Of a DNA stretch of 13,089 bases, positions 6,585 through 11,563 are shown piece by piece (positions within the stretch are counted from its first letter, which is position 1; each line of letters starts with the position of its first letter). The DNA comes from a virus. Its lineage: Duplodnaviria > Heunggongvirae > Uroviricota > Caudoviricetes. The stretch lies in the IMG/VR virus record IMGVR_UViG_2531839006_000011, positions 1 through 13,089 of that record; one strand, written 5' to 3'. The translations under genes and the position numbers were made by a program. Below the pieces are notes generated by a model. The model was not told the DNA's origin. It was given only the letters and a program-made list of their open reading frames with translations, and searched no databases.

Positions 6585-7308
6585 TGATGCAGCACGTCAG
6601 GAGCAACTGATTAAACGGATAAGAAAACTGCTGGCGCTGAGCCGGAATAACAGTAATCCCCATGAGGCAGGTCAGGCTCTTTCCCGCGCACAGGCGCTGA
6701 TGCGGAAGCATGGTATCACCGAACTGGATGCTGATATTTCGGTGATAAAAACCTCATCATCAAAGGGAGCACCGTCAGAAGCGGAAAAAGTTCCGGTATG
6801 GATGGGGCGTCTTATGAATGTTGTTGCAGGGGCATTCGGATGCCATACATACCTGGATTGGCGTATCACAACCGGAGGATACTGGCGGCGGATTGTCACA
6901 TTTTATGGTTTTGGGGAGCGTCCGGTTGTGGCTGCGTATGCCTTTGATGTTCTCTGCCGGCAGATGCAAAAGGCGACAAAAGAGTATCTCTCAACCCAGA
7001 GCCGGAAATTAAAACACTCAACCCGTCGTGCAAGAGCTGCGATGTTTCGTGACGGCTGGGTTTATGGGGTGCGTGATGTGGTGGATGCATTCCGGCTCAC
7101 GGAAGATGAGACGCGTGTAATGAATACGTGGCTGCAGAACCAGCAATTTGAGGGAATGGTCGTCTTCCGGGAGGTAAAGGACTGCCATGGCGGTGACCAT
7201 GCACGCTGGCAGGGATACAACGAGGGGAAAAAGGCAACGCTGAATCACGGTGTTGGTTCCCGGGATCTGAGACCGGAAAGCCTGATATCAGGCGGAGGTG
7301 AGGTATGA
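6577..7308 (+). CDS. Hypothetical protein, DUF2786-like N-terminus (243 aa)
   Basis: ATG at 6577 with GGAGGGG just upstream, 8-bp overlap with the ParB-like stop. N-terminal EQLIKRIRKLLALSRNNSNPHEAGQALSRAQALMRKHGI resembles the DUF2786 N-terminal helix pattern (recollection). Confidence 0.7.
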   Translation: MNNDAARQEQLIKRIRKLLALSRNNSNPHEAGQALSRAQALMRKHGITELDADISVIKTSSSKGAPSEAEKVPVWMGRLMNVVAGAFGCHTYLDWRITTGGYWRRIVTFYGFGERPVVAAYAFDVLCRQMQKATKEYLSTQSRKLKHSTRRARAAMFRDGWVYGVRDVVDAFRLTEDETRVMNTWLQNQQFEGMVVFREVKDCHGGDHARWQGYNEGKKATLNHGVGSRDLRPESLISGGGEV

Positions 7309-7778
7309 GTAATAACTTGTCACAGGCCACCAACGGACTGTTGATGCAGCTGGTGATGGATCTCAAAAGTGGCTATCTGCGCCGCTGTGAAGCGCTGGGG
7401 CTTTCCCGGGAAGAAATGCAGATGCTGCAGGGGCTGAGTATTGAGGAAATTCACTATCTGTCAAATTCAGAGGTGTCAGTGCTGCGGCTGGATATTAACC
7501 ACAATAACCTTGTACGCATGCTGCAGCAGGCCAGGACTGAACAGAAACGCCTGCAGCGAATCGATCGCGCTCTTGCACTGGGGGGATCGATTGAACTCAT
7601 GGCGTTTTATTTTGGCCTTTCCAGTGTGGACGTTGCAGCACGGCGCCGTATTTCAGGAATTGATGTGCGCCCGGGCGGGGTATCACACTCAGCGATGATG
7701 AAAACTCTGAACTCTGGAGACTGTGGCAGAAAGCAGGGATTAACGATGTGGAGAGCGCTGACGGGCTGGACGTCATGA
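7305..7778 (+). CDS. Hypothetical protein (157 aa as one frame; possibly frameshifted or fused, see findings)
   Basis: ATGA overlap with the upstream gene (ATG 7305-7307, TGA 7306-7308). From 7664 the +2 frame is also open and more protein-like, so the 3' part is uncertain. Confidence 0.55.
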   Translation: MSNNLSQATNGLLMQLVMDLKSGYLRRCEALGLSREEMQMLQGLSIEEIHYLSNSEVSVLRLDINHNNLVRMLQQARTEQKRLQRIDRALALGGSIELMAFYFGLSSVDVAARRRISGIDVRPGGVSHSAMMKTLNSGDCGRKQGLTMWRALTGWTS

Positions 7779-7882
7779 TGCTCTGTGCAGAGCAGATGAA
7801 TATCCCGCTCACGGCCGTCTGGCATGCTGTCAGGGGGTGGCATACAGCCGGAAGCCCTGAACAGGTAAGGAATGCGTCATGA
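7775..7882 (+). CDS. Small ORF (35 aa from ATG; 44 aa if GTG 7748 is used), HTH-like, overlaps both neighbours by ATGA
   Basis: ATG 7775-7777 overlaps the upstream TGA 7776-7778, and its TGA 7880-7882 overlaps the downstream ATG 7879-7881. Sequence MMLCAEQMNIPLTAVWHAVRGWHTAGSPEQVRNAS; the frame is open from 7664. Confidence 0.3.
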   Translation: MMLCAEQMNIPLTAVWHAVRGWHTAGSPEQVRNAS

Positions 7883-8127
7883 AGATGAAAGAGCTGGTTC
7901 CCGGTCTGCTGAGCTGTCCCGGGGTACCGCCAGCCTGCCAGCGGAAGGCGGTGGACCTCGTTAACCGGTTTCGTCGCGGGGAGAGGAATTACCATGAACT
8001 GAAGGAAAAGGGATTCGGGTATATCAAGATTAATGTTGGTCCGGACTGGCGGTTACTGAGCAGGAACCGGGGACAAACCTGGGCGCTGTTGAGTCACGAG
8101 CGATACAACAATATGAGACTGAGGTAG
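7879..8127 (+). CDS. Hypothetical small protein (82 aa) with RelE/ParE-like C-terminal signature
   Basis: C-terminus WRLLSRNRGQTWALLSHERYNNM fits the RelE/ParE pattern of two beta strands ending in a His/Arg-x-Arg-x-Tyr region. The family call is by-eye inference only. Confidence 0.55.
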   Translation: MKMKELVPGLLSCPGVPPACQRKAVDLVNRFRRGERNYHELKEKGFGYIKINVGPDWRLLSRNRGQTWALLSHERYNNMRLR

Positions 8128-8133
8128 AGCAAA

Positions 8134-8310
8134 ATGACTGATTTTGGTTCAACTAAATATAACGCCAGTTTTGAAGAATGGCATGAAGTGTTAATGGACT
8201 ATGCCGGGTTACGTGGTGGAAGTGCCGCCGATGCCGAAGCATGGCGCGATGACTATGAAGCTGGAAAAACGCCTGTCGAAGCATATTGCGATGAGTGGGG
8301 TGATGAATGA
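8134..8310 (+). CDS. Small highly acidic hypothetical protein (58 aa)
   Basis: ATG 8134 with GAGG about 9 nt upstream; 15 of 58 residues are D/E against 5 K/R/H; its TGA (8308-8310) overlaps the next ATG (8307-8309). Confidence 0.5.
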   Translation: MTDFGSTKYNASFEEWHEVLMDYAGLRGGSAADAEAWRDDYEAGKTPVEAYCDEWGDE

Positions 8311-8519
8311 GCAAAATTGACTATCAGGAGCTGCGTGAGGCGGCAGAAAAGGCAATGCATGACGACTGGGGATTTGACACGGACCTTTTCTATGAGCTGG
8401 TAGAACCATCGATTGTGCTGGCTCTGCTGGATGAATGCGAGACGCTGGCAACTGAGAATGCGAAGCTGAAGACAGCACACCCTCAACTGTTCGGGAAAGC
8501 TGAAGGAGCGACAAAATGA
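8307..8519 (+). CDS. Ea22-like small protein (70 aa)
   Basis: MSKIDYQELREAAEKA...SIVLALLDECETLATENAKLK resembles the LREAAEKA / LALLDE motifs of lambdoid-prophage Ea22-like proteins (recollection). ATGA overlap with the next gene at 8516-8519. Confidence 0.6.
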   Translation: MSKIDYQELREAAEKAMHDDWGFDTDLFYELVEPSIVLALLDECETLATENAKLKTAHPQLFGKAEGATK

Positions 8520-8737
8520 GCAAGCCAACCGACGAAGAAATAGTTCGGGTGTTGGAAGAACACGGGCGCTGTATGACTTACGTCGTGACCAACTGGCTTA
8601 GGGATAAATATCGCACACTCAAAACGGCATACGTTTTGCGTCGTCTAAAGAAACTGGAGTTCGACGGGAAAGTAAAGCGCGTTAACAGTTCTTATATAAG
8701 ACAAATTTGCTGGGAGGCAACCAGTGAGCGAGATTGA
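8516..8737 (+). CDS. Small basic protein, possible winged-helix DNA-binding protein (73 aa)
   Basis: C-terminal YVLRRLKKLEFDGKVKRV resembles a wHTH recognition helix plus wing. ATG at 8516 overlaps the upstream stop. Confidence 0.5.
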   Translation: MSKPTDEEIVRVLEEHGRCMTYVVTNWLRDKYRTLKTAYVLRRLKKLEFDGKVKRVNSSYIRQICWEATSERD

Positions 8738-10458: not shown

Positions 10459-10459
10459 T

Positions 10460-10657
10460 ATGGATAAAAACACCACTGCTTACTGGAATCTGTCACTTGA
10501 TACCGAATGCCCAAAATGCGGTCACAATTTCGATCTGCTTTGTGATCCAGATTTCTGGGAATTTTCTGGAGCAAAACAGGCATGTGAAGAAATAAAAGGT
10601 TACGAAACATGCTGTCCAGAATGTAACCATGAATTTAAAACAGATTTTGTGTATTGA
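10460..10657 (+). CDS. Small zinc-ribbon-like protein (65 aa)
   Basis: Two Cys pairs, CPKCGHNF and CCPECNHEF, spaced as in a zinc ribbon; ATG at 10460. Confidence 0.55.
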   Translation: MDKNTTAYWNLSLDTECPKCGHNFDLLCDPDFWEFSGAKQACEEIKGYETCCPECNHEFKTDFVY

Positions 10658-10667
10658 GGCATAACAA

Positions 10668-10808
10668 ATGACCACTATAACCAAAGAGCGACTGCTGACA
10701 ATCAAGCAGTGGCGCGAAACATACGGACCGGGTAGCAACGTTGTACTGCCAGCAGAAGAAGCGGAAGAACTGGCACGGATTGTACTGGCATCGCTGGAAG
10801 CGGAACCG
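10668..10808 (+). repeat. About 141-bp direct repeat, copy 2
   Basis: See copy 1 at 9837-9977. Confidence 0.8.
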
Positions 10809-11081
10809 GTGGCGTGGATGTGTGATGACGAAGATGGTCGTGAATATAACGGTCATAACGAGTTTTCTTATGGAAGACGCGGGATTCCCCTTTACGCCGT
10901 CCCGCCAGCGCCGAATGGATTGGTTAAAGCCGTAGCTTTCTATGAGCAGGTTAAACGTGAAAATCCGCCAGTTGAAACGGGAGCATGGAAAGACGCCGTT
11001 GACTGGGTGCTTAAACAAGCTTGTCAGGCTGTAAACACTGGCATCAATGAAAGAAGAACAATTGAAGAAAATGATGATTGA
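10668..11081 (+). CDS. Hypothetical protein, paralog B of the shared N-terminal module (137 aa)
   Basis: ATG 10668 with GAGG about 8 nt upstream; N-terminus MTTITKERLLTIKQWRETYGPGSNVVLPAEEAEELARIVLASLEAEP differs at 4 of 47 positions from the 9837 ORF. Confidence 0.6.
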   Translation: MTTITKERLLTIKQWRETYGPGSNVVLPAEEAEELARIVLASLEAEPVAWMCDDEDGREYNGHNEFSYGRRGIPLYAVPPAPNGLVKAVAFYEQVKRENPPVETGAWKDAVDWVLKQACQAVNTGINERRTIEENDD

Positions 11082-11129
11082 GCCGGAAGCAGCAAAAAAG
11101 CGCATTGCAGAACTGGAGGAGCGCCGGTC

Positions 11130-11345
11130 ATGAGAAAAATCAGTGGAATGTTGAACCTGGAGAAGGCCAGGATGCAGTTGCGTGTTTTGTTATCAGGACC
11201 GGTTCCTGCGATCACTCCGATGTCGCATGCCGTGGCAATTAAAGTTGTGCCTGATGCTCCGGATGCGAGTGAGCGGAGGGTGGCTGAACTGGAACAGGCC
11301 TGCGCTGCCGCGGGCATTCGTATCAAAGGGGAACAAGTGAAATGA
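11130..11345 (+). CDS. Hypothetical small protein (71 aa)
   Basis: GGAGGA about 9 nt upstream of ATG 11130; its stop overlaps the next ATG (ATGA at 11342-11345). Confidence 0.45.
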   Translation: MRKISGMLNLEKARMQLRVLLSGPVPAITPMSHAVAIKVVPDAPDASERRVAELEQACAAAGIRIKGEQVK

Positions 11346-11563
11346 AACTGAAGATGCAGGCAATGGACGGCCCGGTGATTATAGAGAGTAGTGATGTGAC
11401 ACAGTTTTACCCTGACCATGAAAGTGGCGGGGAACTCACCGCTGTTGAGTACCTTGCTGACGGGGGAAGAATCACCGCGAGGGTGAGGCACTCTTTTTAT
11501 CAGGTTGCTGCGGCACTTGCCGGGGCATGGCGTGCGGATGATGCATCAAAAAGCGGTGGGTGA
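11342..11563 (+). CDS. Hypothetical small protein (73 aa)
   Basis: ATGA-coupled to the upstream ORF; last gene of the small-ORF train. Confidence 0.45.
   Translation: MKLKMQAMDGPVIIESSDVTQFYPDHESGGELTAVEYLADGGRITARVRHSFYQVAAALAGAWRADDASKSGG

Follow-up and report, generated by a model that had tools for sequence, protein, structure and literature searches.

The gene train considered here occupies positions 7305-11563 of a 13,089-nucleotide stretch of DNA recorded as viral (IMGVR_UViG_2531839006_000011 in IMG/VR; "the window" below means this whole stretch), and it lies in an ICEEc2-like integrative conjugative element (ICE) of the SPI-7/ICEclc type (SPI-7 / pKLC102-PAGI-2 / ICEclc, MPF_G) inserted at tRNA-Phe. 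Our analyses indicate that the train is composite, such that two genes of the ICE backbone, one of the BisC (DUF2857) family and one ParE-like, come first and are followed by a recombination-driven hotspot filled with phage early genes. We consider it probable, at roughly 0.6, that these phage genes are read through from upstream, are dispensable, and encode phage-type modulators. A preliminary description of this DNA, made from its letters alone, had taken the train for one cassette with accessory or anti-defence functions, and this unity dissolved into two core ICE genes plus a variable hotspot.

Comparison of related loci revealed that the hotspot is the interval between the ParE-like gene and the gene for an STY4528-family ICE replication protein (11824..13089, plus strand, PGAP annotation), which spans 8128-11823 in the window and is occupied mainly in E. 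coli. Among 30 usable ICE loci from other Enterobacterales, including Salmonella, Kluyvera, Enterobacter, Pantoea, Leclercia, Erwinia, Edwardsiella, and Xenorhabdus, the end of DUF2857 and the start of STY4528 lie 347-417 bp apart in 28, with only the ParE-like gene between them, and none of the 30 holds the window's open reading frames (ORFs, named here by their start positions) 8134 to 11342. In the two exceptions, a Salmonella locus and a contig that bears the label Vagococcus, about 1 kb lies there and contains only degenerate pieces of Ea22-like sequence plus a short tandem repeat. In Salmonella enterica this repeat (L015, about 9190-9250) translates as YILYIL... or PVHPVH... and sits among the Ea22-like fragments. 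The other contig, labelled Vagococcus sp. WN89Y and thus Gram-positive by name, has an enterobacterial ICE backbone and the same identities as the Salmonella locus, and is likely a contamination or mislabelling.

The E. coli copies of the ICE carry from one to about eleven ORFs in this interval, in at least eight different combinations, with fillings that include DUF7446, HNH endonuclease, XF1762-family, and Ea22-like genes. DNA homology among these variants ends at ~8125 and resumes at ~11128, both of which are gene boundaries, and these breakpoints delimit the most divergent part of the hotspot among E. coli copies, a variable phage-derived cassette at 8128..11127 (plus strand). The two ORFs that follow, 11130 and 11342, are present in most E. 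coli variants and missing from the two most divergent variants and from the other genera. GC content at third codon positions is 0.29-0.54 in the cassette genes versus 0.59-0.68 in the DUF2857 and ParE-like genes. The earlier reading as an accessory cassette that adjoins the replication module is therefore supported for 8128-11563, which is missing in 28 of 30 relatives, variable in E. coli, and flanked by replication, partition, and regulation genes, but it fails for the first three ORFs, which are the split DUF2857 gene and the universally conserved ParE-like gene. Neither the ICE family nor the gene families are new, and ICE hotspots are an established concept; the ParE-like–STY4528 hotspot with its phage-derived filling, however, appears undescribed in the literature searched.

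The phage origin of the filling emerges from several lines of comparison. Every ORF of the train except 11130 has a PHROG match, always to a family of unknown function, and nearly all of the nine small ORFs of 8128-11127 recur, with 95-99% of nucleotides identical, in non-essential early operons of lambdoid and P1/P7 phages. Pieces of 8500-10800 are found at 95-97% nucleotide identity in Stx-converting, other lambdoid, and P1/P7-type phages; of the 568 plasmids that match, 444 are non-mobilisable, and those matching best are records of ~95-100 kb with phage-type genes. The gene order of ORFs 8724, 9325, and 9837 (Ea22-like, 171 amino acids, N-terminal-module gene) is the same in Stx phage 75/02 and in the C1-operator-controlled 'hea' operon of P7. 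The likeness to lambdoid and P1/P7 early operons comprises the same gene families, amino acid identities of up to 99%, tightly overlapped small ORFs, mosaic exchange at conserved module boundaries, and the Ea22 build, in which a coiled coil links an N-terminal segment to a C-terminal domain that varies. What differs is the setting, in that the window's genes lie in an ICE operon and not under a phage early promoter.

Shared coding modules mark where exchange has occurred. We recognised four of them, namely the Ea22 N-terminus, a coiled coil with the motif 'KRIAELE', a C-terminus with the motif 'AGIRIKGE', and a 145-nucleotide N-terminal module. The last forms a direct repeat (93% identity, repeat search) with its first copy at 9837..9981 and its second at 10668..10812, both on the plus strand, and two ICE variants (L007 and L008) have one repeat copy and lack exactly the bracketed unit, 9982-10667. 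At 11082..11129 (plus strand, repeat D2) recombination has left a scar in which the remnant of an Ea22-like coiled coil, EAAKKRIAELEER, stands out of frame and is followed by a stop. Mosaicism of Ea22 is documented (PMC10834534) and agrees with our alignment of ORF 8724 homologs. Cassette content changes by homologous recombination at shared coding modules and not by rapid divergence. The products had been called fast-evolving, for which we found no support, because the ratio of nonsynonymous to synonymous substitution (dN/dS) is low (0.02-0.10 for ORF 9325 and 0.06-0.08 for the ParE-like gene), the phage copies are 95-99% identical in nucleotides, and variability comes from gene replacement.

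The two backbone genes stand apart from this variable content. ORFs 7305-7778 and 7775-7882 proved to be the halves of one 192-amino-acid DUF2857 gene (7305..7882, plus strand), a BisC-family gene and candidate core ICE regulator that is intact in the reference and split here. Profile PF11198 matched the N-terminal half at 2.3e-42 (145 bits against a cut-off of 36.8, profile positions 2-116) and the C-terminal half at 4.9e-5 (positions 150-173). Comparison with the reference traced the frameshift to a 1-bp deletion in a GGG run at 7673..7675 (plus strand) that reads GGGG in relatives. The deletion is absent from 30 of 30 near-full RefSeq matches, as judged by aligned lengths, and a look through public assemblies turned up neither the truncated product nor the frameshift allele. 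The deletion either arose as a sequencing error in the homopolymer or makes this gene, for the presumed ICE master activator, a null allele. The ATGA listed as a junction at 7775 is present in the sequence but is an artefact of the frameshift, since both flanking ORFs belong to one gene, and the count of about 13 small ORFs becomes 13 genes in 14 ORFs, two of which are the one broken gene.

This first gene also belies the earlier statement that none of the ORFs could be assigned a function, as it belongs to the same family as BisC, which pairs with BisD, a ParB-domain protein, to make up the master activator of transfer competence in ICEclc (PMC7423338). As in ICEclc, DUF2857 is encoded downstream of a ParB-family protein at the same operon position. 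The ParB-family gene of the window (4935..6584, plus strand, PGAP; phrog_30771 at 7.7e-129) holds a BisD-like place, and a DUF2786/DUF7168 gene (6577..7308, plus strand; PF23771 at 1.1e-29, PF10979 at 3.6e-13), ATGA-coupled to DUF2857, intervenes. This intervening gene sets the window apart from ICEclc bisD-bisC and from the described ICEEc2/SPI-7 family alike; it is missing in Xenorhabdus ICEs, the only relatives in which ParB directly precedes DUF2857 as in ICEclc. It matches the phage family phrog_421 and may for that reason itself be an older insertion. A further difference from ICEclc BisDC is the frameshift in the window, and a further likeness is a weak, below-cut-off FlhD-like signal in the DUF2857 gene (PF05247, E 0.001); an activator role and bistability would here be attributed by analogy. 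The otherwise near-identical ICE copy of E. coli FDAARGOS_1287 carries a frameshift by a 1-bp indel in its ParB-family (BisD-like) gene (L011, 301-1949), a second and independent inactivating change in the presumed activator module.

The second backbone gene encodes a ParE-like protein of 82 amino acids with an isoelectric point (pI) of 10.5 and forms the left boundary of the hotspot (7879..8127, plus strand; PF24732 at 1.7e-19, 70 bits against a cut-off of 24.4). It directly follows DUF2857 in 30 of the 30 loci of other Enterobacterales and likewise in each of ten further E. coli copies, coupling to it by an ATGA overlap being seen in E. coli, and between E. coli variants it shows dS of about 1 with dN/dS of 0.06-0.08, which signifies strong purifying selection. 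A homolog search returned only 8 close relatives. In the examined loci we found no conserved antitoxin-like neighbour except DUF2857 upstream, and the downstream neighbour is variable or is STY4528. By its distribution, the ParE-like gene belongs to the conserved ICE backbone and is not accessory. By analogy with ICEclc, for which growth arrest of transfer-competent cells has been described, the protein might contribute to such arrest.

The layout of the train bears on how the cassette would be expressed. All credible genes from 7305 to 11563 are on the plus strand, as had been described; seven antisense ORFs of 104-156 amino acids also occur there, which have neither a PHROG match nor an annotation in the reference. 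The ATGA overlaps at 7305, 7775, 7879, 8307, 8516, 9837, and 11342 are all in the sequence, as are the 14-bp overlap at 8724, where the start codon is GTG, and the gaps at 9325, 10237, and 10460, each of 1 bp. To these we add gaps of 6 bp (8134), 10 bp (10668), and 48 bp (11130) that had been missed, and a Shine-Dalgarno-like purine run upstream of every train start. With dN/dS well below 1, the train ORFs have the substitution pattern of real genes. Tight coupling is not unique to the train, as the upstream hypothetical, dnaB-PI, ParB, and DUF2786 genes overlap likewise, and the whole lies inside a long co-directional array running parA-dnaB-parB...STY4528-topB-ssb.

Consensus scans revealed no plus-strand promoter-like site of the sigma-70 type in 1264-13089, a crude search that is blind to non-sigma-70 and activator-dependent promoters, and no convincing plus-strand terminator within the train. 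Read-through of the cassette from the ICE operon is therefore probable. Under the scheme that we favour, the cassette genes would have no promoter of their own and would be read through and translationally coupled from upstream, so that, given this read-through, their products would be made only upon switching on of the ICE operon. The cassette would be dispensable for the ICE, and its products would most likely modulate host physiology and DNA transactions in the manner of phage early proteins, among them a putative MmcB-like nuclease and Ea22-like proteins of a pro-lysogenic family; that they are dedicated inhibitors of host immunity is less likely.

Turning to the individual products, the cassette opens with a 58-amino-acid, very acidic protein of pI 4.1 (8134..8310) that matches only the C-terminal part of phrog_519; this ORF and all those below are on the plus strand. 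An Ea22-like stub of 70 amino acids follows (8307..8519), which has the N-terminal module only (PF13935 at 4.6e-10, profile positions 1-89 of 139), and then a basic 73-amino-acid protein (8516..8737; phrog_9799 at 1.9e-43) that is possibly a winged helix, its winged helix-turn-helix matches in Pfam being sub-threshold (E 0.04-0.1). The next, ORF 8724 (8724..9323), encodes a 199-amino-acid Ea22-like protein (PF13935 at 3.5e-26). With 92.9 bits for ORF 8724 and 40.7 bits for ORF 8307 against a PF13935 gathering cut-off of 27, the Ea22-like label is confirmed for both.

ORF 8724 has the tripartite Ea22 build, with a Cys-rich N-terminal module, a coiled coil (modelled with confidence as a helix at residues 75-114), and a C-terminal domain that is conserved in the alignment and contains GFTGCGKS. 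More than 7000 homologs yielded a modular alignment in which alternative N-terminal modules and coiled coils of variable length are joined to a fixed C-terminal domain, and ORF 8724 lacks a coiled-coil segment found in most homologs. As to the proposed P-loop, GFTGCGKS, which fits Walker A (GxxxxGK[ST]), is nearly invariant at residues 130-137 in a strand-loop-helix context, but the C-terminal domain of ~80 amino acids around it is poorly modelled (confidence score pLDDT 30-59) and has weak PDB sequence matches only. By sequence this domain is unrelated to the solved C-terminal domain of lambda Ea22. Sequence searches of four proteins against PDB chains returned nothing meaningful.

ORF 9325 (9325..9840) encodes a 171-amino-acid, MmcB-like protein of the PD-(D/E)xK fold and putative nuclease. 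Structure prediction bore out the fold that had been proposed for it, showing a restriction-endonuclease-like alpha/beta core, and the catalytic-type residues D40, E53, and K55 are invariant in 41 sequences, yet the protein had no Pfam or NCBIfam match even at E 10. Relative to MmcB-like PD-(D/E)xK proteins (structure 3dnx, SPO1766), it belongs to a separate subfamily of Enterobacterales and phages and lacks a Pfam match. Set against its more than 300 homologs the protein is complete, with the low dN/dS given above. ORF 9837 (9837..10235, 132 amino acids; phrog_60, phrog_3323, phrog_660, and phrog_5117) shares a conserved N-terminal module of 48 amino acids with its paralog in that part, ORF 10668 (10668..11081, 137 amino acids; phrog_660 over its whole length at 3.2e-43). 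In every reference genome, PGAP labels 9325, 9837, and 10668 pseudogenes, frameshifted or partial; because 9325 is full length and 10668 matches all of phrog_660, these flags look like annotation artefacts of mosaic genes.

Between the two paralogs lie genes for a 73-amino-acid acidic protein (10237..10458; phrog_10585 at 9.6e-43) and a 65-amino-acid acidic, zinc-ribbon-like protein (10460..10657; phrog_4173 at 9.4e-28). For the latter, the zinc-ribbon label is backed by two CxxC motifs (CPKC ... CPEC) but otherwise by sub-threshold zinc-hook and YnfU matches only, whereas the description of some products as very acidic was accurate (pI 4.1-4.5 for 8134, 10460, and 8307). Beyond the scar, a 71-amino-acid ORF (11130..11345) without a Pfam or PHROG match ends in the Ea22-type C-terminus AAGIRIKGE and is ATGA-coupled to a 73-amino-acid ORF (11342..11563; phrog_5994 at 6.7e-26), dN/dS being 0.25-0.45 for these two ORFs. 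No NCBIfam family scored above its cut-off for the train proteins.

The assignment of the element itself rests on the window and its continuation in a reference genome, where the ICE is ~78 kb long. The reference carries replication and regulation genes (parA, dnaB-PI, named 'SPI-7-type island replicative helicase', and ParB-family, DUF2786, and DUF2857 genes), the 'ICE replication proteins' STY4528 and STY4534, topoisomerase III, and ssb, together with a full TIGR037xx set of transfer genes and a type IV pilus operon; at its far end, a TraI-domain relaxase and the ICE's own tyrosine recombinase adjoin an intact tRNA-Phe. A parA, parB, DUF2857, ssb, and topoisomerase cluster accordingly stands near one island border, as in the conserved parA-parB...ssb-topB cluster that includes a DUF2857 gene (PMC3334931), and the element shows insertion at a tRNA gene with a direct repeat, its own tyrosine recombinase, a relaxase, and type IV secretion genes. 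Since these are ICE replication, transfer, and relaxase genes, the prophage or phage identity implied by the wording of the preliminary description is ruled out.

ICEEc2 is the described E. coli ICE of the SPI-7 / pKLC102-PAGI-2 / ICEclc kind, inserted at pheV or pheU. The present element resembles this family in its tRNA-Phe insertion, in the parA, dnaB-PI, ParB, DUF2857, STY4528, topB, and ssb cluster opposite the integrase end, and in its MPF_G-type TIGR037xx transfer genes, type IV pilus, and TraI-domain relaxase; it differs, ICEEc2 being compared by description, in that E. coli copies have the extra ParE-like–STY4528 hotspot full of phage-type genes. Among 5426 complete E. coli genomes, about 25 carry the region in their chromosomal DNA at 100% identity bar one indel, and avian pathogenic strains account for many of these.

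At the parA end, the ICE is bounded by the 3' ~50 nucleotides of tRNA-Phe (1461..1510, minus strand; GGGGATTGAAAATCCCC...CACCA), which form the attachment (att) repeat separating the ICE from a neighbouring pap/tia island; a strong terminator-like hairpin (1426-1451, minus strand) comes after this remnant. PGAP annotates a 78-nucleotide 'tRNA-Ser' at 1461-1538 (minus strand), which we reject in favour of the tRNA-Phe remnant, as the tRNA-like part is only the 3' ~50 nucleotides from the anticodon loop through CCA and neither ARAGORN nor Rfam detected a complete tRNA or RNA gene in the window. The integrase at 1-1263 was likewise considered and rejected as the ICE's own, because the remnant intervenes and the ICE integrase is at the other end; it belongs to the adjacent pap/tia island. 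Against the closest reference, 49 of 50 substitutions fall in window 1-1451, in the integrase gene and the integrase-att spacer, and the ~11.6 kb of ICE sequence differ by one single-nucleotide polymorphism and one indel, so the neighbouring island has a different integrase allele or has recombined there.

The most serious competing explanation, though we think it unlikely, is that the cassette serves anti-defence or establishment, with small proteins made early in the recipient or in an activated donor that inhibit restriction, CRISPR, abortive infection, or the SOS response. The products are indeed small, several are very acidic (pI 4.1-4.5), one has a nuclease fold, the same families occur in phage early operons, and the genes sit in a variable hotspot of a conjugative element; hotspots of the related Pseudomonas islands PAPI/PAGI are enriched in anti-defence genes (PMC12629846). 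The 11 hotspots published there have other boundary genes than ours. No ORF matched a known anti-defence family in Pfam or PHROGs, and the ICE's recognisable anti-restriction region, judging from gene content, is an ardA cluster about 40 kb away with DUF1281, LPD29, a methyltransferase remnant, and small hypothetical genes (L045, 19444-25025). The nucleotide identity of 95-99% with low dN/dS carries no arms-race signature, the cassette is missing from most relatives, and lambda Ea22, the one studied relative, is pro-lysogenic and not anti-defence, an Ea22 phenotype being known only for lambda and Stx phages.

One observation in favour of anti-defence concerns plasmids. In the IncI2 plasmids pHN1122-1 and pBK15692 (8293-9529), homologs of ORF 9325 (97.7% amino acid identity) and ORF 9837 (a full-length relative at 40%) lie ~2-3 kb from mobC and the relaxase gene, across a divergent intergenic region, in a same-strand array starting with a TraL-type gene. 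This intergenic region is the presumed origin of transfer (oriT), as suggested by gene arrangement, and it contains many ACCCACA-like repeats. According to the rule of Samuel et al. 2024, the relaxase gene adjoins oriT on its lagging side, and anti-defence genes are enriched among the first ~30 ORFs across oriT from it; by this heuristic and the presumed oriT, the IncI2 homologs would be leading-region genes within those first ~30 ORFs. The same rule would place the ICE cassette on the lagging side of TraI, which is ~12 kb away across att. The cassette resembles leading-region islands in being a dense same-strand array of small genes with variable content and in sharing two families with the IncI2 oriT-proximal array, but it lacks a known anti-defence gene such as ardA, as well as psiB, a methyltransferase gene, and ssb (~7 kb downstream), and 7305-11900 contains no inverted repeat of at least 20 nucleotides of the kind that forms single-stranded-DNA promoters (Frpo/ssi).

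A related and quite doubtful idea would join these settings into an 'entry/activation-phase toolkit' shared by lambdoid and P1-like phages, IncI2 leading regions, and the ICE, which would hold at least one new counter-defence or host-takeover factor (candidates being the MmcB-like nuclease, the 9837/10668 N-terminal-module proteins, or the acidic mini-proteins), or in which Ea22-like proteins would keep lambdoid prophages lysogenic during transfer.

We give low odds to the cassette being a largely inert passenger, that is, a decaying fragment of a prophage early region captured by recombination and kept within the operon. Truncated or chimeric ORFs, the out-of-frame Ea22 remnant, the partial or frameshifted PGAP labels, the Salmonella hotspot with its degenerate Ea22 fragments only, and dispensability in most relatives would all suit such decay. 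Yet the nine ORFs are all open, with Shine-Dalgarno-like sites and tight coupling, and the fillings of the hotspot vary but always consist of intact genes; ORF 9325 is as long as its more than 300 homologs and under strong purifying selection, such that its 'frameshifted' label contradicts the 171-amino-acid length of the family. Very improbable is that the cassette is anti-phage defence or superinfection-exclusion cargo protecting the ICE host, for instance a nuclease with partners: ICE hotspots often hold defence systems, a PD-(D/E)xK-fold protein is present here and an HNH endonuclease in the hotspot of other variants, but PADLOC defence models matched none of ten ORFs, the genes are typical phage early genes, and there are neither sensor or ATPase partners nor signs of constitutive expression.

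We thus retain the composite train, with its backbone genes and a read-through hotspot of phage early genes, and several observations weigh against it. The functions of the cassette proteins are drawn from fold and family, and most of these families are of 'unknown function'. Several ORFs (8134, 8307, and 8724) look truncated or chimeric and PGAP flags several as partial, so part of the cassette is possibly inert. The promoter scan is crude and read-through co-expression is deduced from the DNA, and the 9325 and 9837 families beside the presumed IncI2 oriT fit establishment or anti-defence better than a role in the donor cell.

Current concepts are left unchanged by these observations, which provide a well-delimited example and not a new kind of system. 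They reveal a precise site of gene exchange, at which phage early genes are swapped, in an already described family of conjugative islands of E. coli; these islands bring along virulence cargo and are able to mobilise chromosomal DNA, and the site lies directly downstream of their presumed master-regulator module. The swapped genes offer a small, defined candidate set for working out the long-puzzling roles of the early accessory ('ea') genes of lambdoid phages, including a conserved MmcB-like nuclease-fold protein common to phage early operons, IncI2 plasmids, and the ICE, and the strongly conserved ParE-like gene coupled to the BisC-family gene may bear on the growth arrest of transfer-competent cells.

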